From: a virus
Taxonomy: Duplodnaviria > Caudoviricetes
Direction: 5' to 3' (one strand)
Virus record (IMG/VR): IMGVR_UViG_3300037067_007160
Span: 32,001 to 96,000 of that record
Length of the DNA stretch: 64,000 nt
Positions 45,401 through 63,247 of the stretch are shown in pieces. Every line of letters starts with the position of its first letter. The stretch's first letter is position 1. The translations under genes were made by a program, and so were the position numbers. The notes under the pieces were generated by a model. It had not been told where the DNA came from, searched no databases, and saw only the letters and a program-made list of their open reading frames with translations.

Positions 45401-46726
45401 GTGGGAACTCTTTATATCGACACAGGTGGATCAGCCACTAATAGCGGAAGCCGTGACGAGAATGCAGCAATCCTGACGGGATCAGCAGCTACTGCATCTG
45501 GCGTTGTTGTTTCTCTCGATGGAAGCCCCGACCTATCATCGGTTATCTATACTGCTGGACCTACACAAGACAGTATCTATCTTGCACAGGCAACGAACTC
45601 CAATCAGAAAATATTTTGGATAACAAACATTGATAATGTAGCGAAAACAGTAACGACTAATGTGGCTCCAACGGGTATTGTGTCCTCGGCGTGGGCGATT
45701 GGTGGAAGGCACGTCCTTACGAACGCATCCATTGAAGGAGCCCCACGCGCTGGGGATGTAATCCAGTTTAACAATAGTCCAGCAGCAAGCGCTTCGACAC
45801 TTTGGACATGCCGCACAGCAGGGGACAATACGTCGGGCTGGATCACTCTACGAGGGAAGGCCGGGACGCGTCCGGTTCTCACGAATACGTCGACGAACTG
45901 GTGCATAAACGCAAACAACCAGGCGTATTGGAAAATCGAGAACCTGGAACTGCAACAACAAGGCGCGTCAGGTAACGCTCTTACATTTTCTGGATACTGG
46001 CAACTCAAAAATGTAAAAGTCAGTGACAGTGCTGGGGGATTCAACATCAGTATAGGGAACATCATTGCCGACTCTGAGTTTTCCGGCATCGGGGGTACTG
46101 TGTTTTCCGCCCCAGGAGGGGCGCAAAGTCTCCAAGTGCTCAACAGTTATATCCATGACAACACTGGGAATGTTCTTAGTCTCTGGTCGACAGCTAGCTT
46201 CGTGATTTTTCATAACAATATCGTCGATAGTATGACCGGGAAAGGACTTTACATCGCGGCGGCTTACACGTCGCCGAACATGCCTATTTGGATAACGCAA
46301 AACACGTTCTATAGGTGCGGCGATAGTGCTATAGAAATAACAGACAAGGACGTTGGGCCCGTCATTCTCTACAACAACATCTTCAAGGACAATGGAAATG
46401 CCGCTGGAGAATACAACTTTGAGCAGACTGGTGGAACCTTTAATGCATCTGGCGGAATCTCTCGGAGCAATATTTTCAGCATCGATGGTATTGTTGGGGG
46501 TGGAAACACCTATGGAATCACGCTAGACTCCACTGATATTGTAGCCGATCCTCTCTTTGTTGATGCCCCTAATGGTGATTTTTCTCTTCAATCCACTTCA
46601 CCAGCTAAGGCAGGGGGATATCCCGGAGTATTCCTGGGTGGTCCTATCGGATACCTTGACATTGGAGCGGTGCAACGACAGGAAGAAAATAGTTCTGTAC
46701 AAAAGGCCTATTCATTTATTGGATAG
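45401..46726 (+). CDS. right-handed beta-helix protein (tailspike/depolymerase-like)
   Basis: Repeated I.N..I.DN/F.NN turns; C-terminal DPLFVD...GDFSLQSTSPA..DIGAVQ. Confidence 0.7.
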   Translation: MGTLYIDTGGSATNSGSRDENAAILTGSAATASGVVVSLDGSPDLSSVIYTAGPTQDSIYLAQATNSNQKIFWITNIDNVAKTVTTNVAPTGIVSSAWAIGGRHVLTNASIEGAPRAGDVIQFNNSPAASASTLWTCRTAGDNTSGWITLRGKAGTRPVLTNTSTNWCINANNQAYWKIENLELQQQGASGNALTFSGYWQLKNVKVSDSAGGFNISIGNIIADSEFSGIGGTVFSAPGGAQSLQVLNSYIHDNTGNVLSLWSTASFVIFHNNIVDSMTGKGLYIAAAYTSPNMPIWITQNTFYRCGDSAIEITDKDVGPVILYNNIFKDNGNAAGEYNFEQTGGTFNASGGISRSNIFSIDGIVGGGNTYGITLDSTDIVADPLFVDAPNGDFSLQSTSPAKAGGYPGVFLGGPIGYLDIGAVQRQEENSSVQKAYSFIG

Positions 46727-46759
46727 GTTGGATAATATTACGTTAGGACGAGGTATTAT

Positions 46760-47041
46760 ATGAACGAAAAAGGACTGTTTAATAGAATATGCACAGCATG
46801 GCCAGTTGTTGTATCGTTTGCTGGACTCATGGCAGCAGTAGCAAGCTTCTTTATATGGTATGGTGGTTGGTCATATAGAGCGGATATTCTCAATAATACT
46901 GTAGCAAAATCTGTCGAAAGGTTGGACAACCAAGAGAAGCGGATCTCAGAAGTAGAACGGGCTGTAAGAGAAATTCCGGAAATGAGATCTGAGATTAAGC
47001 GCATTCTCGAAATAGTGTTGTCCATAAAGAGGAATGGATAA
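46760..47041 (+). CDS. membrane-anchored coiled-coil protein (holin/lysis-like)
   Basis: N-terminal TM helix plus coiled coil. Confidence 0.5.
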   Translation: MNEKGLFNRICTAWPVVVSFAGLMAAVASFFIWYGGWSYRADILNNTVAKSVERLDNQEKRISEVERAVREIPEMRSEIKRILEIVLSIKRNG

Positions 47042-47303
47042 GAGCGATGTACTTTATGCAATATCAATTTTCATCTTCTTCTTCTTCCCACTCATGGGAG
47101 GAATGTTCTACGTTGTTAGTATTATAGATCCAATAGCAAATCACCTTGAAACGATAAACAGAAGGCAGGAGAATCACGAGGAAAGACTTATCAATATAGA
47201 AGATAACATAGTTGATATTGTACAGATGAGAGAAGAACTAGAAAAGATTAGGAATAAACTCGAACAATTACAGAAGGAAAAGAGGAATGAATGGCAAAAT
47301 TAA
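47034..47303 (+). CDS. membrane-anchored coiled-coil protein
   Basis: TM helix plus coiled coil; similar to upstream ORF (QEKRISEVE vs HEERLINIE). Confidence 0.5.
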   Translation: MDKSDVLYAISIFIFFFFPLMGGMFYVVSIIDPIANHLETINRRQENHEERLINIEDNIVDIVQMREELEKIRNKLEQLQKEKRNEWQN

Positions 47304-47971
47304 TTCCCTATCCTAAATTTGATACTGTATCTCCTGAACAGGTGCTTAAGGCCAGCATCTGGCTCTTCTATGGTGGAAATAAGGTTACTGAGTTCTTTGG
47401 AAATCATGTATATAAGCATCCATTCTGGCCAGCTGCCTTTCATGCTGCCGGAGGACTTGGTGGTGCCGAAATGCTTAATATTGGCATTGAAGCAACAATT
47501 AAGGATGTTAGAAAGGAATATCAAGAGACTAGAAGGATCGACGTTATTGAGCTACTTGACCTTACCGACTTCGAGCGAGATATAATCTGTAGGAAGTTTA
47601 GAAGAGATGCTGGTAACAATATATACGATGCCGGTGGATACGCTAGAATGGGTAGCAAGTTCTGGGTCCTCCGTTTCCTAAAGAATATACATGCTTCTGA
47701 TAAGAATGACTTCTGTTCAGATAACGTAGTTGATAACTTCTCTGAACCTCCATTAAGGAGGAAGGGAGAAGCTGATGAAGAATATAACAGTCTCTTGCTT
47801 CCAAGGAAAATAGAAGTAAGCTACCTCTCATCAGAGGATACGGCACCATGGCATCTCTTAGAACATGCCATAGACAAGAACTTTCAGAATGGAACAAGGA
47901 GAATAAGGACTGTTCATATTGGGCCCGACTTTCTAGCAGCTCAAAAGAAAAAATTTCCTGAGCTAACCTAG
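47291..47971 (+). CDS. permuted papain-like (YiiX/NlpC-P60) enzyme
   Basis: FHAA..YD..DFCSDNV, His-before-Cys order. Confidence 0.55.
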   Translation: MAKLIPYPKFDTVSPEQVLKASIWLFYGGNKVTEFFGNHVYKHPFWPAAFHAAGGLGGAEMLNIGIEATIKDVRKEYQETRRIDVIELLDLTDFERDIICRKFRRDAGNNIYDAGGYARMGSKFWVLRFLKNIHASDKNDFCSDNVVDNFSEPPLRRKGEADEEYNSLLLPRKIEVSYLSSEDTAPWHLLEHAIDKNFQNGTRRIRTVHIGPDFLAAQKKKFPELT

Positions 47972-48037
47972 CCAGGGAAGGACTACCGCAAGGAGTCCAT
48001 CACACGCGAGCCTATGAGGCCGCAAAAGGAGAAACAC

Positions 48038-48508
48038 ATGTTCAAGACGTTTATGCCATTAGTAAACATCGACGAAGACTTCGATGGAGTGTTTGATAGA
48101 CTCCATGATCAACTTATGAATTCCCTAAGTCAAAAGAGTGGCTTCATTAAGTTAATCGGAGATTCTTCCTACCCAAAGTGTAATGTACGTGTGGATGGCA
48201 ATGATGTTGTATTCGATATTGCCATTCCATATCACAGAAGTGAAGATGTAAAGGTTAGCATAGAGGACAACGTCCTTACAATCTCTGGACAGTCAGCGGC
48301 GCCAAAGGCTGATGAAGTATTCCTTCTCAGGGAAATACCCCAGAGATCATTTGCAAGATCGTGGAGGCTTCCTGCAGTTCCATCTAGAGTTCTAAGCGAG
48401 AGTGACATTGCCGCCGATTATAAGGACGGTCTGCTCACAATTCGTGTCAAAGAACTTATACCTCCCAAGGTTGAAAAGAAGCGAATTGACATTAAACTAA
48501 GCAAGTAG
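48038..48508 (+). CDS. small heat shock protein Hsp20
   Basis: SYPKCNV..DVKVSIEDNVLTISG..REI..RSFARSWRLP..ADYKDGLLTI. Confidence 0.92.
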   Translation: MFKTFMPLVNIDEDFDGVFDRLHDQLMNSLSQKSGFIKLIGDSSYPKCNVRVDGNDVVFDIAIPYHRSEDVKVSIEDNVLTISGQSAAPKADEVFLLREIPQRSFARSWRLPAVPSRVLSESDIAADYKDGLLTIRVKELIPPKVEKKRIDIKLSK

Positions 48509-48514
48509 TATAAT
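48486..48514 (+). promoter_or_regulatory. consensus sigma70-type promoter of nrdJ
   Basis: TTGACA-17 nt-TATAAT; a GC-rich leader hairpin follows at 48530-48570. Confidence 0.8.
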
Positions 48515-48587
48515 CTCAGATCATAGTACTGGTCAGTGGAGGCGTAGTATACGCTGCGCCTCCATTACCATTTTGAGGAGAGAACAA

Positions 48588-50441
48588 ATGAATCCATCTA
48601 ACAAACTCTTGTCGGATATCGTTGCTTTTAGAACGTACGCTCGATATATATCTAATCTATCAAGACGAGAATCATTGGAAGAAACGATTAACCGAAATAT
48701 GGTAATGCATCTTGAGAGATTTCCAGCTCTCTCAAAAGATATTATCAAAGCATATGGGTTGGTTCATGACAAACTTGTTATGCCTTCAATGAGAGCCCTT
48801 CAGTTCTCTGGCGAGGCTGTAAGAAGGAATAACCTTCGTCTCTTTAACTGCTCCTATCTCTCTATAGATGATCCACACGCTTTCGCTGAAGTCCTCTACC
48901 TCCTTCTATCAGGTACAGGAGTCGGCTACTCCGTTCAGAAGAAACACATTAACAAGCTTCCTATCGTTGGTAGTCCGAGAGAGGATAACATATTCAAGAT
49001 TCATGACTCCATAGAAGGTTGGGCACAGGCTATCCACGTTCTTGCTGAAGCCTACTTCTATAGTAGAATTCGCCCAATATTTGACTACTCACAGATAAGG
49101 GTACGAGGGGCCAGACTATCTACTACAGGAGCAAAGGCTCCTGGGCCAGAACCACTTAAACATATGCTAGAAACAGTTGAGAAGAAGTTTCAGAATGCAA
49201 GAGGAAGAAGGTTACGTCCAATAGAGGTTCATGATATCGCATGTATTGTTAGTGACTGCGTCCTCGCTGGCGGAGTACGTAGATCTGCCATGATTAGCCT
49301 ATTTGATAGGGATGATAAGGAGATGCTTACCTGTAAGAGTGGTGAGTGGTACATACAACATCCATATAGAGCTAGGGCTAATAATAGTGTTGTCCTTCCA
49401 AGGAAAGAGGTTACAAAAGAAGAGTTTGAGCATATCTTCAAGATAACAGAGGAGAGTGGGGCCGGCGAACCTGGCTTCACATGGACAAGCAATTCTGACA
49501 TGGGCGTCAATCCATGTTCAGAGATATCTCTCTTTTCCAATCAACTCTGTAACCTCACTAGCATTAATCAAAGGGGAATTGAAGATAAGGCCGACTTCCT
49601 TAGAAGAGTAAATGCTGCTACCCTTATTGGTACTCTTCAAGCTGCTTATACTGACTTTCCATTTGTTAGACCAGTATGGAAAGAAGTGACTGAGAGAGAA
49701 GCTCTCCTTGGAGTTTCATTCACGGGCATTGCTGATAGTGGTAGCAAAATTACTAATGATTGGCTTGAAGAAGGAGCCATCTATGCGAAAGAAGTTAATG
49801 AACGGATAGCGAAGAAGATTGGTATAAATCTTGCAGCACGAATAACCTGTGTTAAACCAGAAGGAACACTATCAACTATTGTTGGTTCATCTTCTGGAAT
49901 TCATGCACGACATGCGCCATATTACATACGAAGAATTCGTATGAGTAAGAACGATGATCTAGCTCATTATCTATCTAATACAATACCCGATCTTGTAGAA
50001 GATGATATTGCAGCAGCCAATACTGTAGTCGTGTCAATACCGCAAGAAGCACCAGATGGTGCTATTGTAAGGAATCAGGAAACTGCTCTAGACCTCCTTG
50101 ATCGTGTAATGCGCTACAATAATAACTGGGTAAAACCAGGACATAGAAGTGGAGATAATCTTCACAATGTGAGTTGTACTGTGTCTGTGAAACCTGATGA
50201 GTGGAACAAGGTTGGTGAGTTCATGTGGAAACACAGGGCCAATTACACAGGTATCTCCCTTCTACCATATGATGGAGGAGAATATAAACAAATGCCTTTC
50301 GAAGAATGTACAAAAGATAGGTATGATGAACTGATGTCGCATATAAAGACCATTAACTTAAGGGAAATACATGAGAATGATGATATGACGGAATTTACTA
50401 AGACTGTAGCATGTTCTGGTGGAAAATGTGAACTTATATAA
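48588..50441 (+). CDS. nrdJ: class II (adenosylcobalamin-dependent) ribonucleotide reductase
   Basis: RTYAR, MPSMR, FNC, GGVRRSA, NPCSEI, LCNL, TCVKPEGT, C-terminal CSGGKC. Confidence 0.93.
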   Translation: MNPSNKLLSDIVAFRTYARYISNLSRRESLEETINRNMVMHLERFPALSKDIIKAYGLVHDKLVMPSMRALQFSGEAVRRNNLRLFNCSYLSIDDPHAFAEVLYLLLSGTGVGYSVQKKHINKLPIVGSPREDNIFKIHDSIEGWAQAIHVLAEAYFYSRIRPIFDYSQIRVRGARLSTTGAKAPGPEPLKHMLETVEKKFQNARGRRLRPIEVHDIACIVSDCVLAGGVRRSAMISLFDRDDKEMLTCKSGEWYIQHPYRARANNSVVLPRKEVTKEEFEHIFKITEESGAGEPGFTWTSNSDMGVNPCSEISLFSNQLCNLTSINQRGIEDKADFLRRVNAATLIGTLQAAYTDFPFVRPVWKEVTEREALLGVSFTGIADSGSKITNDWLEEGAIYAKEVNERIAKKIGINLAARITCVKPEGTLSTIVGSSSGIHARHAPYYIRRIRMSKNDDLAHYLSNTIPDLVEDDIAAANTVVVSIPQEAPDGAIVRNQETALDLLDRVMRYNNNWVKPGHRSGDNLHNVSCTVSVKPDEWNKVGEFMWKHRANYTGISLLPYDGGEYKQMPFEECTKDRYDELMSHIKTINLREIHENDDMTEFTKTVACSGGKCELI

Positions 50442-50922
50442 GAGAAGGAAAACGGGAGGAAGGACAAAATATCTTGGATATTGTGTTGATTGTAAGATAG
50501 AAAAGACACAAAGATGGTATAGACTTAAAGAGAACAAATCAATGGCAAGATGCCAACATTGTTATGGAAAACTTAGACTTTGCAATAAACAAGTAAGAGA
50601 AATAAGAAATAAGCAAAGAAAAGAATGGGGAGAGAAATATGCGTACAGAGTATTTCTCAATCTAGTAAAATATAAGAAGTACACAACAGATATAACAAAT
50701 GAGGAATATCTAACCTATATAAAACAACCATGTCATTATTGTGGAGGTAGCCTTCCAAATAGCGGCATTCGTCTTGATAGGGTAGATAATACGATAGGAT
50801 ATCTAAACTCAAATGTCGTTCCTTGTTGTAAAACTTGTAATATTGCAAAGAACAACAAGTCAGTAGAAGAGTTTAAGGTATGGGTTATCAATGTCTACAA
50901 TAAATTTCAAATAGTTAAATGA
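50419..50922 (+). CDS. free-standing HNH endonuclease
   Basis: CHYCG..LDRVDNTIGY..SNVVPCCKTCNIAK; AT-rich; overlaps nrdJ stop. Confidence 0.8.
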   Translation: MENVNLYKRRKTGGRTKYLGYCVDCKIEKTQRWYRLKENKSMARCQHCYGKLRLCNKQVREIRNKQRKEWGEKYAYRVFLNLVKYKKYTTDITNEEYLTYIKQPCHYCGGSLPNSGIRLDRVDNTIGYLNSNVVPCCKTCNIAKNNKSVEEFKVWVINVYNKFQIVK

Positions 50923-50934
50923 TATAATTCCAAC

Positions 50935-51624
50935 ATGGAACCAAACTACTCACTTCAAAGGCCAGATTATGCCCTTCAGACGGGGTGGACACCAATACCA
51001 CATGCTGTAGTACGGGTCTCCAACAATACCATATCTATTCTCTGTAATAGATCTACATACATATCAGTTGGTGATAAGATACTTCTAACACAGACGACTG
51101 ATAAGTACTTCGAAGTTACCAACATATCAGTTGTTGGAAATACAACAACAATAACTCTTAGTAGTCCTGAGGGTAGTGTTGTGAGCACTGACACAATCTA
51201 CTATTCCTACTTCTCCAAGAATGATAGACCCTATGGTTATACTTCGGTGGGAAGGTTCAAGGCAGGAAGTTTCTTGACACCACATGGTGCTGATCCTGAT
51301 GTCCAAAGTGTGACAGGTATTGGATTTAAGCCAAAGGCTATTGTATTTCTTGGCGTTTGTGGCCAGACTCCATCTGCTGAAAATGGTATAGGAGTTGGTA
51401 TAACAGATGGAACTTCCTCCTTCTCCATTGTAGGATATACAGTAGATGGTGGAGCCTCTGGTGGAGAAGGACCAACTGCGAATACGGTTTTCCAACAGAT
51501 AGATACTGTAGGCGCCATAACTATGAGCGCCAATCTAACTTCTATGGATGTTGATGGATTCACCCTTCTATATAGTTCAAAAGCAGTGAATCCATATGTC
51601 ATTGCCTATCTTGCTATGGGATAA
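50935..51624 (+). CDS. virion/fibre-like protein, probably leaderless
   Basis: VTGIGFKPKAI..DVDGFTL..YLAMG fibre-tip-like motifs; ATG 6 nt after TATAAT. Confidence 0.55.
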   Translation: MEPNYSLQRPDYALQTGWTPIPHAVVRVSNNTISILCNRSTYISVGDKILLTQTTDKYFEVTNISVVGNTTTITLSSPEGSVVSTDTIYYSYFSKNDRPYGYTSVGRFKAGSFLTPHGADPDVQSVTGIGFKPKAIVFLGVCGQTPSAENGIGVGITDGTSSFSIVGYTVDGGASGGEGPTANTVFQQIDTVGAITMSANLTSMDVDGFTLLYSSKAVNPYVIAYLAMG

Positions 51625-51695
51625 TAGTGATATAATAATAGTAATATACATGTGGCGCCTCTGTCTATGACACGCGCAAACTCCACATGTTTTAT

Positions 51696-51762
51696 GGGCC
51701 TTGGTGAGGACGCATAGAGCGTACCTGACACCTTAAGATAGGTTTTACTCCTATCTGGTCCA
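51696..51762 (+). ncRNA. tRNA-like RNA (acceptor plus T arm, no canonical D or anticodon arm)
   Basis: GGGCC/GGTCC-A acceptor with G3:U70, AGATAGG-TTTTACT-CCTATCT arm, one long internal hairpin; alternative 3' end with CCA at 52294-52313. Confidence 0.6.
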
Positions 51763-51819
51763 AACTAGCAAAGATAGCCACCTCCACGTGGTGCTAGTTG
51801 GATAACGCTAAGAGCTATC
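51763..51819 (+). ncRNA. minimal HDV-like (theta-type) self-cleaving ribozyme
   Basis: P1 AACTAGC/GCTAGTT, P2 GATAGC/GCTATC, P3 ACC/GGT, L3 TCCACGT, P1.1 CC/GG, J4/2 GCTAA, no P4. Confidence 0.85.
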
Positions 51820-51847
51820 ACACAGGACGAAGGTCCAGGAGGATACA

Positions 51848-52294
51848 ATGGGAAATAATTCAAATTCCAAGAAAGATAGACTATTGGGAATACCACACGG
51901 AACTGCTAATGGACAGTTACGAAAAATGTTGGTCTTTGACATGGCTAAACGTCTTGGATTACTAGACTGCTATAGATGTAAAGAACCTATTCTTAAGATA
52001 AGAGATTTTTCTATAGAACATAAAATACCATGGCAGTCATCTGAAGAACCAAAAGTAGCATTCTTTGACTTAGAAAACATTGCTTTCTCACACTTAAGTT
52101 GCAATAGTGGTGCGGGCAGTGGAAGTGGAAGAACCATTATATATCCTGAAGGGCAGAAGTGGTGTGGTATATGTAAATCGTTCAAATCACTCACAGAGTT
52201 TCCTGCCTGTGCAAAACGAGATAGAAGTAGAAACTGTAAAGAATGTCATAGCAACTTAATGGCAAAATGGAGAGAAAGAACGGGAAGACACTAA
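51848..52294 (+). CDS. HNH homing endonuclease (paralog of 56434-56838)
   Basis: GTA..LRK..CYRC..DFSIEHKIPW..NIAFSHLSCN; RBS AGGAGG. Confidence 0.8.
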   Translation: MGNNSNSKKDRLLGIPHGTANGQLRKMLVFDMAKRLGLLDCYRCKEPILKIRDFSIEHKIPWQSSEEPKVAFFDLENIAFSHLSCNSGAGSGSGRTIIYPEGQKWCGICKSFKSLTEFPACAKRDRSRNCKECHSNLMAKWRERTGRH

Positions 52295-52313
52295 CTCCCA
52301 TTCTGGTCCACCA
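52294..52313 (+). pseudogene. displaced 3' end of the tRNA-like RNA
   Basis: ACTCCCATTCTGGTCCACCA vs upstream ACTCCTATCTGGTCCAAA. Confidence 0.65.
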
Positions 52314-52384
52314 ATTTCGCTGACTGTGCGGGGCAGTCCATCTACATAAGATCCCCGTTGTCCCTTGCGAAAGGGGAGGTCATA

Positions 52385-53191
52385 ATGTACAAGAACAATT
52401 ATGTTCTAACCATTAGAAGGAATAACCAAACCCTACCAGAAACAAATGGTGAGTGTCTACTCCCATTCCAATCAGAATACGAAGTGAGGCTCAGGAACAA
52501 GAATAGGAAACGATCCCTGGTCGACCTCTACATTGATGGCCGACTTGTCACTAAGGGCGGTCTAATTGTTGATGCCAATAGTTATGTCGACCTTGAGAGG
52601 TTCATCGATAGTGACCTTACTAGAGGTGATCGGTTTAAGTTTGTTCCGATCAGTGATGACAGGATCGACAAGGGTGAATCACAGAATGGCCTAGTAGAGG
52701 CTAGATTCTATGATGAGAGAGAACGAAAGTTTGAGATTCTTAACACTAGTTGGTCCCATACTTGCCACTATCAAAACTGTTGGCAATGTGGTACATGGCA
52801 TTGTTCATGTCAATACTGTCCTATTCGAAACTATACAATCAACTCTGGTGGAACAAGTGGCAACGCCATCTATAGTTCAAATGTGGCAATATATAATAGC
52901 ACCGACATTAGTCAATGTTCAACGGCACATCCCACCAGTAGCGTCCTACGTGGTGAAGCATCGGCTGGAGGAACTGTTCGTGGTGGCACCTCTAGCCAGA
53001 GGTTTACAGCATCCTACCTAGATGTTGATAAGGAAAAGCCCACAGTTATTAGGCTTAAGCTCCTTGGTGTTCCTCCACAAGGACATGAATGCAAGGGAAA
53101 GATCATCTCCTACTGCACTCGATGTGGCCAAGAGACTGGTCAGGAAGATAGGTACTGTTCCAAGTGCGGAAAAGATCTAACCCGCAGATAA
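52385..53191 (+). CDS. hypothetical protein with C-terminal double zinc ribbon
   Basis: LPFQSEYEVRLRN..DLERF..NGLVEARF; CTRCG..YCSKCG. Confidence 0.7.
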   Translation: MYKNNYVLTIRRNNQTLPETNGECLLPFQSEYEVRLRNKNRKRSLVDLYIDGRLVTKGGLIVDANSYVDLERFIDSDLTRGDRFKFVPISDDRIDKGESQNGLVEARFYDERERKFEILNTSWSHTCHYQNCWQCGTWHCSCQYCPIRNYTINSGGTSGNAIYSSNVAIYNSTDISQCSTAHPTSSVLRGEASAGGTVRGGTSSQRFTASYLDVDKEKPTVIRLKLLGVPPQGHECKGKIISYCTRCGQETGQEDRYCSKCGKDLTRR

Positions 53192-53547
53192 ACTTCATAG
53201 AGACTGGTCTATCGGTACTCATAGAGGGAGCTGGATCAATTTCCGGCTTCCTTTATGGGCCGATAAATGGTATGATGCTGGAAGATGGGCGGGTAGCGCT
53301 ACAGATGTTCATCAAGACCCCTACCCACTTTCCACTTGGAAATACAGATGCTAACTACAAGATAAGGTTTGTGGCGGCCAATCTGGCTACAGAAGCTGTG
53401 CAAATTGGTAGATATAGGGATGAGGGTTCGATGTACTTCGTTAGGGTAGCTCTGACGACAGATGAGATTCAACAGGTAAGTTCAGCCCTTAGCTACAATA
53501 AGCTAAGGGAAGGTATGGGCCAAGTGATAAAGATGTTGACAAATTGA
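53164..53547 (+). CDS. hypothetical protein
   Basis: ORF fills gap; start uncertain. Confidence 0.5.
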   Translation: MRKRSNPQINFIETGLSVLIEGAGSISGFLYGPINGMMLEDGRVALQMFIKTPTHFPLGNTDANYKIRFVAANLATEAVQIGRYRDEGSMYFVRVALTTDEIQQVSSALSYNKLREGMGQVIKMLTN

Positions 53548-53564
53548 AAAATCTGTGATATAAT
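53536..53564 (+). promoter_or_regulatory. consensus promoter heading the stable-RNA operon
   Basis: TTGACA-17 nt-TATAAT with extended -10 TG. Confidence 0.85.
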
Positions 53565-53570
53565 ATATAC

Positions 53571-53696
53571 ATGCCAAAGAAGCTAATGTCATGCGTCAGA
53601 CAACTGAAGAGAAAAGGAAACTCTAATCCTTGGGCAATTTGTATTGCGGCCACAGGGCAACACCCTGAGCCGAGGCGGCACAAGAAAAGACGGTAG
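53571..53696 (+). CDS. leaderless small basic protein (41 aa)
   Basis: MPKKLMSCVRQLKRKGNSNPWAICIAATG..; ATG 6 nt after TATAAT. Confidence 0.55.
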   Translation: MPKKLMSCVRQLKRKGNSNPWAICIAATGQHPEPRRHKKRR

Positions 53697-53728
53697 ACAA
53701 CCTCCAGTTGCAACAGACGACTCAGCAC

Positions 53729-53777
53729 CAAGGGTGGGGTTCTACTAAAAAGGAATCTCACCCTTGCTCTTTGACAA
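53729..53777 (+). promoter_or_regulatory. hairpin plus boxA-like antitermination element
   Basis: Long stem CAAGGGTGGGGTTC/GAATCTCACCCTTG overlapping TGCTCTTTGACAA (rrn boxA is TGCTCTTTAACA). Confidence 0.65.
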
Positions 53778-53780
53778 TAT

Positions 53781-54217
53781 GGGCCTGAATTAGGTTTGAC
53801 GGGGCTCACCGAGTGAAAGCGGCAAGCAGGGCCGGCACAACGTCCCTTGAAAAACTTGTGCAAAGCCTAAATGGCAAAGTAAAAGAAGAGTCCAGCCTGC
53901 TCTCTCAGGCTATGGCGATTATTGACGCAGCGTTCGAAAGAGCGCCGGAGTTCGTTCTCGCCTAACCCGCAAGGGTTGTCTCGATCCTAACTAGATTCGT
54001 TCACCTTGTAAGGGATCGGGTAACACTAGGTGAATGGCGGTCTCTATCAGCGCCTTATCTGGTAGATGGTGGAGGAGCCTAGAAGATTTACCAAATGATT
54101 TGGTAAATCTTAGTTCGCTCCCTGTAGTAAACCAAGCCATTGGTTAATTGGCTAAGCTTGTAGATGCGATCATAAAGGAGTTTCGGACGCGGGCTGCGAT
54201 GCCCGCCAGGTCCACCA
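53781..54217 (+). ncRNA. ssrA: tmRNA
   Basis: GGGCCTG/CAGGTCC-ACCA with G3:U70, GG..GAC D-loop region, tag ORF 53873-53965 GKVKEESSLLSQAMAIIDAAFERAPEFVLA*. Confidence 0.93.
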
Positions 54218-54224
54218 ATATAAG

Positions 54225-54298
54225 GCCGGTTTCGTATAAAGGAATTATACCTCACTCGTAATGAGGAGATCCTGGATCGTTACCAGGAACCGGCTCCA
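54225..54298 (+). tRNA. tRNA-Thr(CGT)
   Basis: Cloverleaf, CCTCA-CT CGT AA-TGAGG, CCA. Confidence 0.9.
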
Positions 54299-54370
54299 GT
54301 GTTGTAGGGAATCCGTGGATCCTCTCGCATAGAGCGAGTGCTGGTAAGACCGGCGGTGAAACCACGGGCT

Positions 54371-54448
54371 GCTCATGTGGCGCAATTGGCAGACGCATCC
54401 GGCTTAGAACCGGAAATCCTGCAGGTTCGACTCCTGTCATGAGCACCA
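54371..54448 (+). tRNA. tRNA-Leu(TAG), short variable loop
   Basis: TCCGG-CT TAG AA-CCGGA, CCA. Confidence 0.9.
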
Positions 54449-54464
54449 GATTTGAGGAGGTTAT

Positions 54465-54560
54465 ATGGATATTGAAGAGTTCGTTAGGTCACAAGTTGAC
54501 CTACCAGAAGACTTTAAGAAATTACTTGAGGAGAACTTCTGGAATCTGATTCTTGAATGA
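54465..54560 (+). CDS. small acidic protein (31 aa)
   Basis: GAGGAGG RBS; MDIEEFVRSQVDLPEDFKKLLEENFWNLILE. Confidence 0.55.
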   Translation: MDIEEFVRSQVDLPEDFKKLLEENFWNLILE

Positions 54561-54564
54561 TTTT

Positions 54565-54641
54565 GCCTCATTGGTGTAGCGGCTTGCATGCTTCCCTGTC
54601 AAGGAAGAGGCTGGCGGGTTCGACTCCCGCATGGGGCGCCA
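54565..54641 (+). tRNA. tRNA-Asp(GTC)
   Basis: CTTCC-CT GTC AA-GGAAG, GCCA. Confidence 0.92.
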
Positions 54642-54651
54642 GATAGTAATT

Positions 54652-54737
54652 GGGCTTGTGGTGGAATGGCAGACACGTGCGCTTGAGGTGCGCATGGCCG
54701 CAAGGTCGTGGAGGTTCGACTCCTCTCAAGCCCACCA
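54652..54737 (+). tRNA. tRNA-Leu(GAG)
   Basis: TGCGC-TT GAG GT-GCGCA, long variable arm, CCA. Confidence 0.93.
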
Positions 54738-54738
54738 T

Positions 54739-54826
54739 GGAGAGTTGGGTGAGAGGCTTATACCAGAGGTTTGCTAAACCTCCGAGCCGCAAGGCTCCAC
54801 AGGTTCGAATCCTGTACTCTCCACCA
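54739..54826 (+). tRNA. tRNA-Ser(GCT)
   Basis: GAGGT-TT GCT AA-ACCTC, long variable arm, CCA. Confidence 0.92.
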
Positions 54827-54832
54827 GATTTT

Positions 54833-54910
54833 GCGCCTGTCGTACAAATGGAAAGTACACTCGGCCTTTAACCGAGACTAGTGTGGGATCATACCCCACC
54901 AGGCGCACCA
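54833..54910 (+). tRNA. tRNA-Lys(TTT)
   Basis: CTCGG-CC TTT AA-CCGAG (C33), atypical T-loop, CCA. Confidence 0.85.
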
Positions 54911-54926
54911 GATTTATGGGAGAAAT

Positions 54927-55241
54927 ATGGATAAAAGAACATATAAAGATAGAAGAGAATATCTCATAAAAGCAGTAAAGAGAAGAAGACGAGAATTAAG
55001 AAAACAAGCAGTGAATTATGCTGGAGGAAAGTGCATTTTATGCAATTATAATAAATGCTTACATGCACTAGAATTTCATCATAAAGATCCAACACAGAAA
55101 GATTTTGGAATATCAAATGGTAATTGTAATAGTTGGAATAGAATGAGGAATGAAATTGATAAATGTATTCTAGTCTGTGCAAATTGTCATAGAGAAATAC
55201 ATGAGAAATTGGCGTCTACCCATCAAGGTGACGGGTCCTGA
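54927..55241 (+). CDS. tRNA-associated HNH endonuclease
   Basis: GGKCILC..LEFHH.DP..EIDKCILVCANCHREIH; stop lies inside tRNA-Asn. Confidence 0.85.
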   Translation: MDKRTYKDRREYLIKAVKRRRRELRKQAVNYAGGKCILCNYNKCLHALEFHHKDPTQKDFGISNGNCNSWNRMRNEIDKCILVCANCHREIHEKLASTHQGDGS

Positions 55242-55287
55242 CTGTTAATCAGGCACAAGGGTGGTTCGATCCCACCGACGCCAGCCA
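55210..55287 (+). tRNA. tRNA-Asn(GTT)
   Basis: CCTGA-CT GTT AA-TCAGG, GCCA. Confidence 0.9.
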
Positions 55288-55305
55288 AATTTAGGAGATA
55301 TATAT

Positions 55306-55740
55306 ATGCATCTAACATACACAAAAGCACAATTAGCATCACTTAAAGTTCAAATGTGGGCTAATCAATTAGGATATGTCGTTTCAATACCAACTGTTGA
55401 ATCTAGATATGATATTCTTGTTGATGTTGATGGAAAAATATTTCGTTGTCAAGTTAAGTATGCTGGAAGAAAGCTTACAAGTGGGGCAACAGAGTTGGAT
55501 CTTCGTAAAGAGACAAGAAATAATGGGAAAAAAAGATTATATACGAAAGATGAGATAGATGTTATTCTTGTATATGTTCCTGAAGAAGACAAGGTTCTTT
55601 GGATTGATCATTCTAAATTTCATAATAGAAAAAGTCTAACAATTAGACATATTGAGAATACAAAATGTAAACAAGATTCAATATTTGTTAACGATTATAT
55701 ATGGGTCCAGAGCTCGGTTGGTAGAGCAGACGCCTCTTAA
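55306..55740 (+). CDS. PD-(D/E)XK homing endonuclease (I-Ssp6803I-like)
   Basis: GYVVSIP..RYDILVD..RCQVK..YTKDEID; RBS AGGAG; stop lies in tRNA-Lys anticodon loop. Confidence 0.8.
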   Translation: MHLTYTKAQLASLKVQMWANQLGYVVSIPTVESRYDILVDVDGKIFRCQVKYAGRKLTSGATELDLRKETRNNGKKRLYTKDEIDVILVYVPEEDKVLWIDHSKFHNRKSLTIRHIENTKCKQDSIFVNDYIWVQSSVGRADAS

Positions 55741-55778
55741 GCGTAAGGTCGTGGGTTCGATTCCCACTGGTCCCACCA
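55703..55778 (+). tRNA. tRNA-Lys(CTT)
   Basis: ACGC-CT CTT AA-GCGT, CCA. Confidence 0.9.
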
Positions 55779-55783
55779 ATTTG

Positions 55784-55813
55784 TTGTGGGTCCAACTCCC
55801 ACTCGACGCACCA
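55784..55813 (+). pseudogene. orphan tRNA 3' half (T arm, acceptor strand, CCA)
   Basis: GTGGG-TCCAACT-CCCAC TCGACGC ACCA with no matching 5' half nearby. Confidence 0.75.
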
Positions 55814-55818
55814 GATTT

Positions 55819-55894
55819 GGCCTTATAGTGAAATTGAATATCACATCTCCGTCCTAAGGAGAAGTTTTCGGTTTGAGTCCGAATAAGGCCGCCA
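55819..55894 (+). tRNA. tRNA-Arg(CCT)
   Basis: TCTCC-GT CCT AA-GGAGA, GCCA. Confidence 0.88.
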
Positions 55895-55909
55895 GATATA
55901 GGAGTCTTC

Positions 55910-56278
55910 ATGAACAAGATACCACTAGTCTCAGTAACCAAAGATGACTTGGAAATACAGACGTTTAGATGTGGAGGAAAAGGTGGCCAGCATCAGAATA
56001 AGACAGAAAGTGGAGTAAGAATTATTCATCCTCCATCTGGAGTAACAGTAGAGTCAAGAGAGGAACGGTCACAGGCACAGAACAAGGCTATTGCATTTAA
56101 GAGACTTACTACTAATAAGAAGTTTCTATTATGGTTAAAGATGGAATCGGCTAGGAAGATGGGCATCCTTGAAGATATTAATAGGGCAGTTGATAGGATG
56201 ATGGATCCAAAGAATATAAAGACCGAAGTTAAAGAAGATGAGAAATGGGTAGAGAAGGAATTAGCGGGTGTGGTGTAA
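55910..56278 (+). CDS. class I release factor-like peptidyl-tRNA hydrolase (GGQ; ArfB/PrfH-like)
   Basis: FRCGGKGGQHQNKTESGVRIIH.PSG..ERSQAQNK..AFKRL. Confidence 0.9.
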   Translation: MNKIPLVSVTKDDLEIQTFRCGGKGGQHQNKTESGVRIIHPPSGVTVESREERSQAQNKAIAFKRLTTNKKFLLWLKMESARKMGILEDINRAVDRMMDPKNIKTEVKEDEKWVEKELAGVV

Positions 56279-56337
56279 TGGTAGCATGAGACCCTTCCAA
56301 GGTCCAGGTACGAGTTCGAGTCTCGTCATCCGCTCCA
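56264..56337 (+). tRNA. tRNA-Gly(TCC)
   Basis: GACC-CT TCC AA-GGTC, TCCA. Confidence 0.92.
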
Positions 56338-56342
56338 GTTTT

Positions 56343-56414
56343 GACGGTGTAGCCTAATGGCTAGGCAACGGATTGCAAACCCGTTTTATGCTGGTTCGAT
56401 TCCAGCTGCCGTCT
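56343..56414 (+). tRNA. tRNA-Cys(GCA), CCA not encoded
   Basis: ACGGA-TT GCA AA-CCCGT, U73; acceptor GACGGTG/TGCCGTC. Confidence 0.88.
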
Positions 56415-56433
56415 CATTTTAGGGGTATTATAA

Positions 56434-56838
56434 TTGTTAAATAATAATAAGAAGAATATACAACTCGAAATGAAATATGGAACAGCTTGTAATAAACTTA
56501 GAAAACTAATACTATTCACATTAGTTAAAGAAACAAAGAGAAATATATGTTATCAATGTAAAAAAGAAATAACAAGTATCGATGATTTCACAATAGAACA
56601 TAAGATTCCTTGGTTAGATAGTTTGGAACCAAAGAAATTGTTCTTTAGTATTGATAATATTGGATTTTCTCACTATAAATGTAATATACGAGTTGCAAGA
56701 AAGATAAACAAGAAATATGCAACAAGAAATCAACGAGTAAGAGAATCTAGTAAAAGAATAAGAGATAGAATAAGGAAAACTAATCCAGAATTACTTAGAC
56801 AGATTAGAAGAGAACAATATAGAAGGACAGGAAATTAA
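56434..56838 (+). CDS. HNH homing endonuclease inserted at tRNA-Cys 3' end
   Basis: GTACNKLRK..CYQC..DFTIEHKIPW..NIGFSHYKCN; very AT-rich; start uncertain. Confidence 0.8.
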   Translation: MLNNNKKNIQLEMKYGTACNKLRKLILFTLVKETKRNICYQCKKEITSIDDFTIEHKIPWLDSLEPKKLFFSIDNIGFSHYKCNIRVARKINKKYATRNQRVRESSKRIRDRIRKTNPELLRQIRREQYRRTGN

Positions 56839-56839
56839 T

Positions 56840-56850
56840 CACCGTCTCCA
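56840..56850 (+). pseudogene. displaced original 3' end of tRNA-Cys
   Basis: CACCGTC-TCCA is the perfect complement of GACGGTG plus U73-CCA. Confidence 0.75.
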
Positions 56851-56851
56851 T

Positions 56852-56945
56852 GGAAGAGCTGACCGAAGGCTGGCGCCGGTAGCTGTCTCGAAAACAGTCA
56901 GTCCAATGATTGGACCTGTGGGATCGTTCCCCACCTCTTCCGCCA
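56852..56945 (+). tRNA. tRNA-Ser(CGA), enlarged D region
   Basis: GCTGT-CT CGA AA-ACAGT, long variable arm, GCCA. Confidence 0.85.
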
Positions 56946-56955
56946 GATTTTAGAT

Positions 56956-57031
56956 GGACCTTTGGTGTAGGTGGTGTGCACGTCTGTCTGAAGCACAGAA
57001 GGAATCCGTTCGACTCGGATAGGGTCCACCA
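56956..57031 (+). tRNA. tRNA-Phe(GAA)
   Basis: TCTGT-CT GAA GC-ACAGA, CCA. Confidence 0.92.
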
Positions 57032-57037
57032 GAATAT

Positions 57038-57136
57038 GCGCCCGTTGACTAACGGTGAAGTCTCCCGCCTTATAAGCGGGCAAGTCAGGTCCTAGATTGG
57101 GGCCTCATCCAGGTTCGAATCCTGGCGGGCGTACCA
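57038..57136 (+). tRNA. tRNA-Ile(TAT) with long variable arm
   Basis: CCCGC-CT TAT AA-GCGGG; ~28-nt variable region containing an 8-bp hairpin; ACCA. Confidence 0.85.
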
Positions 57137-57144
57137 AGTTTAGT

Positions 57145-57157
57145 TGTTCTTTGACAA
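57145..57157 (+). promoter_or_regulatory. second boxA-like element
   Basis: TGTTCTTTGACAA, same context as before tmRNA. Confidence 0.6.
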
Positions 57158-57160
57158 TAT

Positions 57161-57235
57161 GGGCCTGTGGTGTAATTGCGAGCATTGATCCCCTGCAAGG
57201 ATTAGGCGAGGGTTGGAATCCCTCCAGGTCCACCA
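57161..57235 (+). tRNA. tRNA-Ala(TGC)
   Basis: G3:U70; GATCC-CC TGC AA-GGATT (C33), CCA. Confidence 0.9.
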
Positions 57236-57239
57236 ATTT

Positions 57240-57314
57240 ACCCCTGTGGTGAAACGAATATCATTTTGCGCTTCGAACGCAAAGTTGCGGGTTTGAATCC
57301 TGTCAGGGGTGCCA
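57240..57314 (+). tRNA. tRNA-Arg(TCG)
   Basis: TTGCG-CT TCG AA-CGCAA, GCCA. Confidence 0.9.
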
Positions 57315-57315
57315 T

Positions 57316-57390
57316 GGGCCTATAGTGTAATGGATAGCACAAGACTCTACGAAAGTCTAAGTGATGGTTCAAGTCCATCTAGGCCCGCCA
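57316..57390 (+). tRNA. tRNA-Arg(ACG)
   Basis: AGACT-CT ACG AA-AGTCT, GCCA. Confidence 0.92.
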
Positions 57391-57398
57391 AATTTTAT

Positions 57399-57473
57399 CT
57401 AGCTGTAGCGTAATTGGTAGCGTCCACCGTTTGGGGCGGTGTGGTGAGAGTTCAAGTCTCTCCAGCTAGACCA
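57399..57473 (+). tRNA. tRNA-Pro(TGG)
   Basis: C1-G72; CACCG-TT TGG GG-CGGTG, CCA. Confidence 0.92.
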
Positions 57474-57490
57474 GTTTATGGGAGGAAGAA

Positions 57491-57682
57491 ATGAATAGGG
57501 GTAAAGTTGCTACAATTATAATTAAAGAAAAGAATGGGAGAAAATTACAGTTTGATGTATCAGGTTACTCATATCGTTTCTCTAGGAAGAAAGTTCCAGT
57601 ATTTGGAGTGACAGAGTTAGATCATATTATTATTGGTCCAGGAAAACTAACTATTTCAGCAAGATTACCTGCACCAAAATAA
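57491..57682 (+). CDS. hypothetical protein
   Basis: RBS GGAGG; fills inter-tRNA gap. Confidence 0.6.
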   Translation: MNRGKVATIIIKEKNGRKLQFDVSGYSYRFSRKKVPVFGVTELDHIIIGPGKLTISARLPAPK

Positions 57683-57745
57683 GATTTATAGATGTAGCAC
57701 TTTTGTAAGAAAAATGTAGACGTTTTCCTTACAAAAATGTAGAAT

Positions 57746-57821
57746 GCTAATGTAGCACAATTGGCTGTGCACTTTCTTGGTAAGAAAGAGGATGTGGGTT
57801 CGAATCCCATCATTAGCTCCA
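57746..57821 (+). tRNA. tRNA-Thr(GGT)
   Basis: CTTTC-TT GGT AA-GAAAG, CCA. Confidence 0.92.
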
Positions 57822-57826
57822 GATTT

Positions 57827-57901
57827 GCCGATGTAGCTCAATGGTAGAGCAGTCGCTTTGTAAGCGAAAGGTTGGAGGTTCAAGTCCTCTCTTCGGCTCC
57901 A
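57827..57901 (+). tRNA. tRNA-Thr(TGT)
   Basis: TCGC-TT TGT AA-GCGA, CCA. Confidence 0.92.
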
Positions 57902-57906
57902 GATTT

Positions 57907-58098
57907 ATGAAGATCATAGAGACTATAAAAAGGTTCTGTATTAGACATCCAAAGTTGGCCCGTGTAGGTTGGACCTGGAGTCTACCAACTTTCAGTAAGA
58001 AGAATGAACCAGTAGAACATGAGGAAAGAAAGGTAGTAGCCCATTATTGTTGGTGTGGTCATTGTCATTGGGATCCACCTACTTGTTGTCAGAAGTAG
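57907..58098 (+). CDS. small Cys/His-rich hypothetical protein
   Basis: Exactly fills gap between tRNAs; CWCGHCH..CC; no clear RBS. Confidence 0.4.
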   Translation: MKIIETIKRFCIRHPKLARVGWTWSLPTFSKKNEPVEHEERKVVAHYCWCGHCHWDPPTCCQK

Positions 58099-58472: not shown

Positions 58473-58500
58473 GGTCCTGTAGCTCAAGTGACAGAGACAA
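58473..58500 (+). pseudogene. 5' half of split tRNA (partner at 59074-59121)
   Basis: GGTCCTG-TAGCTCAAG.. pairs with CAGGACT-ACCA about 600 nt downstream. Confidence 0.8.
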
Positions 58501-58557
58501 ATGTTACTATTGACATATAGTTCTGTTTAAGATATAATCTTGGTAGGAGGTCAGATC

Positions 58558-59010
58558 ATGAATCCACCAAGATATTTACATCTGAAAGAACAAGTGATAC
58601 ATCTTCGTAAGCAAGGATTTGGTTATAGGTCAATTTCAAACAAGCTTAATAATACCATTCCATGGAGTTCTGTAAGAAGACTAGTAATTGGAATGCGTAG
58701 TAATCCAAGACTAGCTTATCTAATGGCGACTGAATACTCTCAAAGGAGACCAAAGGAATGGAATGATATACGAACAATGAGAGTTCGTCGTTTGTATCTT
58801 ATTCAAGAACGTGGTCATAAATGTGAAAGCTGTAATTTAAGTTTCTGGAAAAATCATACTATTCCACTAGAACTTGAGCATAAGGATGGATGTAGAACTA
58901 ATAATAGTAAATCTAATTTAGAGTTATTATGTCCTAATTGCCATGTTTTTACTCCTTATTATAAAGGAAAGAATACTTCATCTTTTCGAAGTAGGGCGAG
59001 TGTGGTGTAA
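58558..59010 (+). CDS. HNH endonuclease with N-terminal HTH-like region
   Basis: RGHKCESC..IPLELEHKDG..NN..SNLELLCPNCH; RBS AGGAGG; stop inside tRNA-Leu. Confidence 0.88.
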   Translation: MNPPRYLHLKEQVIHLRKQGFGYRSISNKLNNTIPWSSVRRLVIGMRSNPRLAYLMATEYSQRRPKEWNDIRTMRVRRLYLIQERGHKCESCNLSFWKNHTIPLELEHKDGCRTNNSKSNLELLCPNCHVFTPYYKGKNTSSFRSRASVV

Positions 59011-59072
59011 CTGGCAAACACTCTGATCTTAAAAATCAGATCTTGTGAGTTCGAATCTCATCACTCGCACCA
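58996..59072 (+). tRNA. tRNA-Leu(TAA), short variable loop (cassette cargo)
   Basis: CTGAT-CT TAA AA-ATCAG, CCA. Confidence 0.9.
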
Positions 59073-59073
59073 A

Positions 59074-59121
59074 TTTAATATTAGCGAACTAGTGTCGGTT
59101 CGAGTCCGACCAGGACTACCA
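59074..59121 (+). pseudogene. 3' half of split tRNA
   Basis: GTCGG-TTCGAGT-CCGAC CAGGACT ACCA. Confidence 0.8.
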
Positions 59122-59138
59122 TATTTATGGGAGGATGT

Positions 59139-59846: not shown

Positions 59847-59884
59847 GCGCTCAAAGCTCATATGGCTGAGCATATGTCGATAAC
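59847..59884 (+). pseudogene. 5' half of split tRNA-Ile(GAT)
   Basis: GCGCTCA, D arm GCTC/GAGC, ends TC GAT AA C. Confidence 0.85.
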
Positions 59885-59912
59885 TGTGATATAATTTAAC
59901 TAGGAGGATATC

Positions 59913-60320
59913 ATGGATAAGACATGTGTTCTTTGTTGGAATAAAGTAAAGAAGTATAGATCTGATATATGTGGATCATGTATGGTTTTAATACGGAGAC
60001 TTCGTCTAAAACTTGCGTGTATAAAGTTACTTCATGGAAAATGTTTCAAATGCGGAATGATCGCAACATTGAAAAATCTAGGAGCATTTCAGTTTCATCA
60101 TAAAGATCCAAGTGAGAAGAAGTTCCAGTTATCATTTGGTACATACTCTTGGGATAAAATAAAAGAAGAAGCAAGAAAATGTGAACTTTGGTGTGCTAAT
60201 TGTCATTCTATTAATCATGCAACAACATACACAGAAGAAAAGATTAATAGAGCTATACGTTTTTGTGGAACTGAAGATATACATAATCTTGTAGCAGAAT
60301 GGAAAATTATTGGCTCGTAG
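59913..60320 (+). CDS. tRNA-associated HNH endonuclease
   Basis: GKCFKCG..FQFHHKDP..EARKCELWCANCH; stop inside tRNA-Ile. Confidence 0.87.
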   Translation: MDKTCVLCWNKVKKYRSDICGSCMVLIRRLRLKLACIKLLHGKCFKCGMIATLKNLGAFQFHHKDPSEKKFQLSFGTYSWDKIKEEARKCELWCANCHSINHATTYTEEKINRAIRFCGTEDIHNLVAEWKIIGS

Positions 60321-60384
60321 CTTAATGGTCAAGCCATCGCTCGATAAGCGATAGATGTGGGTTCGATTCCCAACGGGCCAACCA
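60311..60384 (+). tRNA. tRNA-Ile(GAT) (cassette cargo)
   Basis: ATCGC-TC GAT AA-GCGAT (C33), ACCA. Confidence 0.87.
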
Positions 60385-60388
60385 ATAT

Positions 60389-60431
60389 GATAACCGGGAG
60401 ATAGCAGGTTCGAATCCTGCTGGGCGCACCA
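60389..60431 (+). pseudogene. 3' half of split tRNA-Ile(GAT)
   Basis: GAT AA CCGGG..GCAGG-TTCGAAT-CCTGC TGGGCGC ACCA pairs with GCGCTCA. Confidence 0.87.
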
Positions 60432-60762: not shown

Positions 60763-60765
60763 TAT

Positions 60766-60804
60766 GCTCTATTCGTCTAGTGGTCTAGGATCTCAGACCT
60801 TCAA
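60766..60804 (+). pseudogene. 5' half of split tRNA-Glu(TTC)
   Basis: GCTCTAT-TCGTCTAGTGGTCTAGGA..CC TTC AA, then AT-rich insert. Confidence 0.85.
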
Positions 60805-60838
60805 ATAAATAATAGTTTGAAAGTGATATAATAGTAAC

Positions 60839-61279: not shown

Positions 61280-61329
61280 GATAGTTCTCTTTCAAGGAAC
61301 AGATACCAGTTCAAATCTGGTTGGTGTCG
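61258..61329 (+). tRNA. tRNA-Glu(TTC) (cassette cargo), CCA not directly encoded
   Basis: GACATCA/TGGTGTC, GTTCT-CT TTC AA-GGAAC. Confidence 0.87.
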
Positions 61330-61346
61330 CTCCATTTTCTATAAAA

Positions 61347-61382
61347 CAGAAGATGTTGGTTCGAATCCCGTACAGAGCACCA
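61347..61382 (+). pseudogene. decayed 3' half of split tRNA-Glu
   Basis: GG-TTCGAAT-CC..ACAGAGC ACCA pairs 6/7 with GCTCTAT. Confidence 0.8.
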
Positions 61383-63171: not shown

Positions 63172-63247
63172 GGTAGGTGAAGGCCGATGGACGGCCGCAC
63201 GGCTGTGGCCCGTGCCCTAGCCGGTTCGATTCCGGTCATCTACCCCA
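63172..63247 (+). tRNA. tRNA-His(GTG)
   Basis: G-1:C73, CACGG-CT GTG GC-CCGTG, CCA. Confidence 0.92.

Follow-up and report, generated by a model that had tools for sequence, protein, structure and literature searches.

An HDV-like ribozyme fold and an HNH endonuclease gene inserted together between the discriminator and the CCA of a phage tRNA-like RNA: a probable composite homing cassette

The sequence analysed here (hereafter, the window) is a 64,000-nucleotide stretch of a 130-kb fragment of a large phage, a virus record that is about 52% complete. Thirty-three tRNA genes were called in the phage contig, none of them for a suppressor tRNA, and code 11 fits its long genes. The locus of interest, all of it on the plus strand, starts with a 67-nt tRNA-like RNA (51696-51762; fold z -4.5), referred to below as the host RNA. 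Its last base is followed directly by the fold of a minimal HDV-like (theta-type) ribozyme (51763-51819), then by a Shine-Dalgarno-like sequence (51836-51843), the gene of a 148-amino-acid HNH endonuclease (51848-52294) and, right after the stop codon, a displaced copy of the 3' end of the host RNA (52295-52313). The phage tmRNA (53781-54217; 88 bits with Rfam) is encoded just 3' of the locus. An extended -10-like motif (51628-36), recognised by sequence, and a leader hairpin (51648-90), recognised by folding, lie upstream of the host RNA. Both are outside the insertion described below and are found in alleles with and without it; in a sigma-70 scan, the -10-like motif was not above chance.

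The host RNA folds into a 5-bp acceptor stem containing a G3:U pair, an A discriminator, and one long bulged arm; its T-like arm has 7 bp and a 7-nt loop. It was called by neither ARAGORN nor Rfam. The CCA at 51760-62 was considered as a CCA tail and rejected, since its first two bases belong to the acceptor stem and its third is the discriminator. Except for one base, the host RNA sequence is common to the window and to three other assemblies, L208, L280, and L281. No homologues outside this phage lineage were found using pattern searches, a covariance model, or blastn of phages: the pattern matches were dismissed as chance, the covariance-model matches were weak and those inspected were ordinary tRNAs, and blastn returned only ribozyme-core or short matches. 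The terminal pairs of the host RNA are those of the tmRNA and the tRNA-Ala of the same phage. One may guess that it is an alanine-chargeable tRNA mimic; the function itself is not established. The 3' half of the host RNA nearly equals that of a real phage tRNA(CAT) (L285, L286), and probable tmRNA ends in other sequences (L287-L289) nearly equal the displaced 3' end copy. The ends in L285, L286, and L287-L289 are possible donor-type sites.

The bases directly behind the host RNA had been read in an initial annotation as a complete nested double pseudoknot, and every helix named there was recovered at the same positions, with all pairs Watson-Crick. P1 (51763-69/51793-99) has seven such pairs and is followed by J1/2 (51770-72); P3 (51780-82/51790-92) encloses L3 (51783-89), the GG partner of P1.1 lies at 51800-01, and P4 is absent, with a 6-nt linker (51802-07) in its place. 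P2 is present as annotated (51773-78/51814-19) and is probably longer than had been assumed, through a C51779-G51812 pair with A51813 bulged, which would make J4/2 CUAA from C51808; an equivalent bulge is found in the sister ribozyme of L208 described below. C51808 is the putative catalytic cytosine, as judged from alignment with tRNA-abutting theta ribozymes, and occupies the first position of J4/2, as does the catalytic C of theta ribozymes (PMC10879173), a group of tRNA-associated minimal HDV-like ribozymes (Kienbeck et al. 2024, PMC10879173). Two features of theta membership, a nested double pseudoknot of P1, P1.1, P2, and P3 without P4 and a C first in J4/2, are met. The fold also puts the predicted cut at 51762/51763, directly after the discriminator A.

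Scanned with a descriptor, the two strands of the 130-kb genome gave a single match, without mismatches, at 51763-51819, while 30 Markov-shuffled genomes yielded no match with 0 or 1 mismatch. The descriptor and the covariance model were our own; the published final RNArobo descriptor of theta ribozymes was not used. With Rfam, the ribozyme bases matched HDV-F-prausnitzii below threshold (26.2 bits, E 0.18). The exact ribozyme pattern had 0 matches in IMG/VR; the pattern of the P3-L3-J4/2 core was found in 70 IMG/VR stretches, mostly directly behind tRNA discriminators, as published for theta ribozymes (PMC10879173), and the P3-L3 core and J4/2 of the window ribozyme are identical to those of dozens of tRNA-abutting gut-phage theta sequences. 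Over 19 aligned ribozyme sequences, pairing in P1, P3, and P1.1 was 97.8%, with two-sided changes at 7 of the 12 pairs. HDV-like folds with a similar P2/P3 junction were also seen in other phages (L290:1885-1800, minus strand; L295:5954-6010), the first of which may carry a P4 extension; no called tRNA and no evident nuclease adjoins either.

One feature required for theta membership, a G at position +1, is not met. The +1 pair is A-U, and the annotation had rightly singled it out as unusual: among 50 distinct natural sequences with the same core, the pair is G-U in 28, G-C in 19, A-U in 2, and A-C in 1. G1 of HDV is reviewed as invariant and its wobble as essential (PMC8495972), so the window ribozyme may be slow. 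Its self-cleavage is likely, in the absence of cleavage data. A pseudoknot-free folding model has the host RNA folded until 51800 is transcribed; once 51819 is transcribed, the 3' part of the ribozyme invades the acceptor stem of the host RNA. Co-transcriptional folding should favour the native form over this competing pairing.

The reading frame annotated as an HNH gene behind the ribozyme does match PF01844 above cut-off (and phrog_23251), and its product keeps all of the family-invariant residues (C41, C44, H58, H82, C85, and N86). Its structural model has a pLDDT of 89; the best fold match, Gme HNH nickase, was not significant (E 0.09), and neither fold nor PDB sequence searches gave a significant match. 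The gene has two genomic properties of a free-standing homing endonuclease: it is an intact homing-family nuclease gene outside any intron or intein, and it is absent from the homologous locus of the close relatives L208 and L280.

Uninserted alleles ending in CCA, which the annotation had anticipated, were found in both of these relatives, and both are without ribozyme and HNH gene. The sister phage L208 was reached via a protein-identity look-up of the downstream protein; no relatives of the downstream gene were found in IMG/VR. The flanking genes are 212 bp apart in L208 and 760 bp apart in the window. The empty host RNA terminates in an encoded CCA, which in L208 is directly followed by the sequence seen from 52314 onward in the window. 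The other empty allele, L280, belongs to a more distant relative (98.5% upstream, 91% downstream), and L281 is a second assembly carrying the filled allele. The 212-bp empty spacing was also found in three Logan contigs, for which only gene spacing and no DNA was available.

Comparison with the empty alleles delimits an insertion of 548 bp (51763-52310) that comprises the ribozyme, the leader, the HNH gene, and the displaced 3' end copy. A left 9-bp direct repeat (51754-51762), made up of the acceptor 3' strand and the discriminator, precedes it, and the right repeat (52302-10) is followed by the original CCA (52311-13). The second copy of the RNA's 3' end that had been reported is therefore exact over these 9 bp and the CCA behind them; the T-arm strand upstream of the repeat is not, having acquired a substitution and an additional base. 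Apart from the insertion, the window and L208 differ at a single base in 3,000 bp of upstream and 1,750 bp of downstream sequence: 51746, which lies in the T-like loop, 17 bp from the insertion junction. This base is T in 2 of 2 filled alleles and G in 2 of 2 empty ones, and it tracks the insertion in 4 of 4 alleles; the linkage rests on these four alleles only. The T-loop motif GGTTCRANTCC is the recognition sequence of T4 SegB, which then cuts after CCAR (PMC2330249). The change at 51746 removes the purine of this motif. We infer that the substitution is a candidate mark of self-immunity or co-conversion. In the filled allele the CCA is also set apart from the discriminator by the insertion; the true target of the HNH protein is not determined.

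Judged by this allele comparison, the predicted ribozyme and the HNH gene travel as one mobile unit. Since the outgroup L280 is empty, we infer that the cassette was gained and not lost. The displaced copy has drifted at two positions and the flanks have not, from which we infer that the cassette is older than the present event and was copied as a block. The pattern at the locus is that expected of homing, with a linked T-loop substitution as the sole other difference in 4.75 kb; homing itself is inferred.

A second cassette of the same design is present in L208 (11551-12156). There, a CCA-less tRNA-Ile(TAT) is followed from the next base (11640) by a ribozyme with G-U at +1, then by an HNH gene whose product is 49% identical to that of the window and, at the stop codon, by 10 nt repeated from the tRNA end and a CCA. 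The predicted cut site coincides exactly with the called 3' end of the tRNA-Ile; that of the window adjoins a tRNA-like RNA called by neither ARAGORN nor Rfam. Compensatory changes distinguish the two ribozymes in P1, P2, and P1.1. The window counterpart of this site, at tRNA-Leu(TAA) (57038-57136), has no insert. Together with the empty alleles, this cassette bears out the earlier proposal of a mobile ribozyme-HNH unit with a displaced 3' end; at the level of aligned DNA, this phage group has twice received a block with a putative ribozyme between the discriminator and the CCA. Resolution of the HNH tree is poor. Both ribozyme-linked HNHs belong to a weak cluster of six (SH-aLRT 87), which includes a ribozyme-free member as well, and the tree therefore does not establish a common origin for them.

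Similar arrangements were found at gut-phage theta loci. A GIY-YIG gene lies 16-79 nt downstream in 15 of 61 distinct theta-core contexts, compared with 0 of 100 nearby control windows, and at four loci (L232, L244, L256, and L260) a 13-16-nt copy of the tRNA end stands at the GIY-YIG stop codon. The ribozyme-nuclease layout thus recurs in gut phages with an unrelated GIY-YIG nuclease. At L221 (ribozyme at 8265), a 17-nt tRNA-end copy is kept behind an apparently internally deleted nuclease, and L231 and L253 share their tRNA and ribozyme with L244 but have neither the nuclease nor the copy. These loci are possible stages of GIY-YIG loss; the direction between L231/L253 and L244 is not settled.

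The HNH family to which the window gene belongs is a phage tRNA-array specialist, with a tRNA ending no more than 150 nt upstream of the family gene in 104 of 164 locus rows. CCA was encoded by 28 upstream tRNAs in 67 distinct measurable HNH loci, and by 675 of 1,062 when all tRNAs there are counted. At five of the 67 loci, an orphan acceptor strand with CCA is found at the HNH stop codon (permutation mean 0.37, maximum 4), and all five follow CCA-less tRNAs. The window itself has such a cassette at its tRNA-Cys (56343-56853), also present in L208, in which a CCA-less tRNA-Cys, an HNH gene (56434-56838), and an acceptor-strand copy with CCA are found without a ribozyme. Nor was a ribozyme found in about 140 other HNH-family loci with a relaxed descriptor and the covariance model. 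A strict descriptor (CC/GG in P1.1) would miss the L208 ribozyme; the relaxed descriptor combined with the covariance model gave the same negative. Since some of these loci combine a CCA-less tRNA with a duplicated end, the family can do without the ribozyme. Displacement of the CCA end is thus a habit of the HNH family, to which one lineage adds a ribozyme. Many leaders in the family (L001-L163) carry a short GACGGAGGTC-like motif around the ribosome-binding site, just 5' of the HNH start codon; both ribozyme cassettes have a variant of it.

Other nuclease-like genes also lie in these tRNA arrays. At 55261-55813 of the window, a PD-(D/E)XK nuclease and a cargo tRNA-Lys(CTT) replace the resident tRNA-Lys(CTT), which is intact in L208 (10306-10381) and whose 3' half is left as an orphan in the window (55783-55813). 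An HNH-like gene (54927-55241) separates tRNA-Lys(TTT) from tRNA-Asn; it is missing in L208, where the two tRNAs are adjacent. Conversely, nuclease-plus-cargo-tRNA cassettes split tRNA-Leu(GAG) and tRNA-Ser(GCT) in L208 (8560-9200 and 9479-10130), and both tRNAs are intact in the window (54652-54826). At three more window positions (58473-59125, 59847-60431, and 60764-61382), a tRNA 5' half is followed by a small nuclease-like gene, a complete tRNA, and the 3' half. The window also encodes an RF-1-domain ribosome-rescue-like protein (55910-56278), in place of which L208 has an encapsulin-ferritin-like gene.

We consider it probable that the insertion is a composite homing cassette, in which a self-cleaving ribozyme is joined to an HNH endonuclease at the 3' ends of tRNAs or tRNA-like RNAs; cleavage, homing, and benefit to the host RNA are inferred. 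As the aligned alleles show, the putative ribozyme and the HNH gene arrive together, as the 548-bp block between discriminator and CCA. By analogy with T4 SegB, the HNH protein may then cut or nick an empty allele in the T-arm/CCA region during mixed infection, and repair from the filled allele would copy the cassette along with the change at 51746, protecting the filled allele. In the transcript, as the fold suggests, the ribozyme would cleave directly after the discriminator, freeing the host RNA without host endonucleases and giving the HNH message its own 5'-OH end. Finally, host or phage enzymes, which we have not identified, would have to remove a cyclic phosphate and add the CCA. The ribozyme would thereby lower the cost of the insertion and, in return, spread with the nuclease. 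Cleavage can take the place of splicing because the insertion sits at the very end of the RNA.

The original suggestion that the ribozyme regenerates the end of the host RNA is supported only in part: the predicted cut falls at the discriminator and would leave the RNA without its CCA and, as expected from the chemistry of HDV cleavage (PMC8495972), with a 2',3'-cyclic phosphate. Searches for a CCA-adding enzyme, RtcB, a 2H phosphoesterase, and a Pnk-type kinase gave nothing in this contig, which is about 52% complete. A NinI-like metallophosphoesterase gene (63187-64000) adjoins the tRNA array of the window. Lambda phosphatase can open cyclic phosphates, and by this analogy the NinI-like protein is a candidate for healing RNA ends.

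This need for extra repair, together with the failure to find a repair gene in the partial contig, fits a different account, in which the ribozyme is active and simply rides on nuclease homing, with no benefit to the host RNA because ordinary RNases would trim the trailer anyway. Most members of the HNH family do manage without a ribozyme at CCA-less tRNA ends. We nevertheless hold this account to be unlikely: the predicted cut register is exact at the discriminator in both cassettes and 47 of 50 theta ribozymes have an A directly 5' of the cut, compensatory changes preserve the ribozyme fold, and gut alleles retain the ribozyme where the nuclease is missing (L231 and L253, compared with L244) or decayed (L221).

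The ribozyme could also serve mainly nuclease expression, by setting a 5'-OH end on the HNH message that either stabilises it or marks it for decay, the latter as a way of dosing a toxic nuclease; a clean tRNA end would then be a by-product. The spacing is suggestive: in both cassettes the HNH start codon follows the ribozyme by 24-28 nt, and in gut phages the GIY-YIG match follows by 16-79 nt. R2 elements, too, release their own RNA from a host transcript with an HDV-like ribozyme (PMC3774820). In three quarters of theta-core contexts, however, there is no GIY-YIG gene downstream, and most of these still abut a tRNA, which makes expression quite unlikely as the main role; it is not exclusive with a composite homing cassette. 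That the insertion is old and no longer homes, the empty alleles having arisen by precise deletion between the 9-bp direct repeats and the A+1 ribozyme perhaps decaying, is compatible with the drift of the displaced copy at two positions and the atypical +1 pair, but very improbable, since the more distant L280 is also empty with the same G at 51746 as L208, deletion leaves the linked substitution unexplained, and the HNH invariants and ribozyme pairs are all intact.

A composite homing cassette offers a concrete explanation of how theta ribozymes that trim tRNAs come to lie at tRNA ends and spread, a matter not addressed in the paper that described them, and it lets selfish nucleases enter phage tRNA genes at low cost, in a place that is highly conserved. 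By its position, the insertion also singles out an uncatalogued 67-nt RNA as one that is treated like a tRNA. As the alleles are near-isogenic, differing by 548 bp and one base, cleavage, specificity, and self-immunity can be tested separately on short substrates. More tentatively, and with rather less than even confidence, we suggest that theta ribozymes as a group arose and spread as the 5' module of homing cassettes at tRNA 3' ends, with GIY-YIG and HNH nucleases having each recruited them independently, and that stand-alone ones are the remains after nuclease decay, kept since the CCA had been displaced. If true, such cassettes would be a class of mobile element of their own, the cleaving counterpart of the mobile intron, and theta ribozymes would be explained without a primary role in genetic-code switching.

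The window ribozyme resembles theta ribozymes in its minimal P4-less fold and in a predicted cut directly after the discriminator of a CCA-less RNA. It differs in sitting inside an insertion with a nuclease, in following a tRNA mimic in a code-11 phage without a suppressor tRNA, and in its A-U pair at +1. The main text of PMC10879173 does not mention HNH, homing, endonuclease, or GIY, and a literature search, short on subscription journals, found no work joining theta or HDV-like ribozymes with HNH or homing. Like the window HNH gene, the gene of T4 SegB stands free in a phage tRNA region and is not found in close relatives, and the target region of SegB is where the window insertion and the linked substitution lie (PMC2330249); SegB is, however, a GIY-YIG nuclease encoded between tRNA genes, whereas the window HNH gene splits the 3' end of the RNA itself, and SegB is not known to come with a ribozyme or a duplicated end.

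Mobile group I introns and collaborative homing offer another parallel, being composites of a ribozyme that repairs the transcript and an endonuclease that spreads the element (PMC2988022). The window cassette, in contrast, relies on a 57-nt self-cleaving ribozyme, without splicing or ligation, and CCA must be re-added; a self-cleaving ribozyme is usable here only because the insertion is at the end of the RNA. A group I intron core is lacking: no Rfam intron match was obtained in 46000-58000, and the 57-nt HDV-like fold is the sole ribozyme fold found in the insert. R2 insertion is not known to restore the host RNA. R2 is similar to the cassette in that it occupies a specific site in the gene of a stable RNA and carries at its 5' end an HDV-like ribozyme, which frees the element RNA from the host co-transcript (PMC3774820). 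The window cassette differs in being a phage element with no reverse transcriptase and, by inference, with homing at the DNA level; the insert holds only the 148-amino-acid HNH gene and no reverse transcriptase ORF. On the inferred mechanism, the cassette would work like a mobile group I intron and like R2; it belongs to neither.
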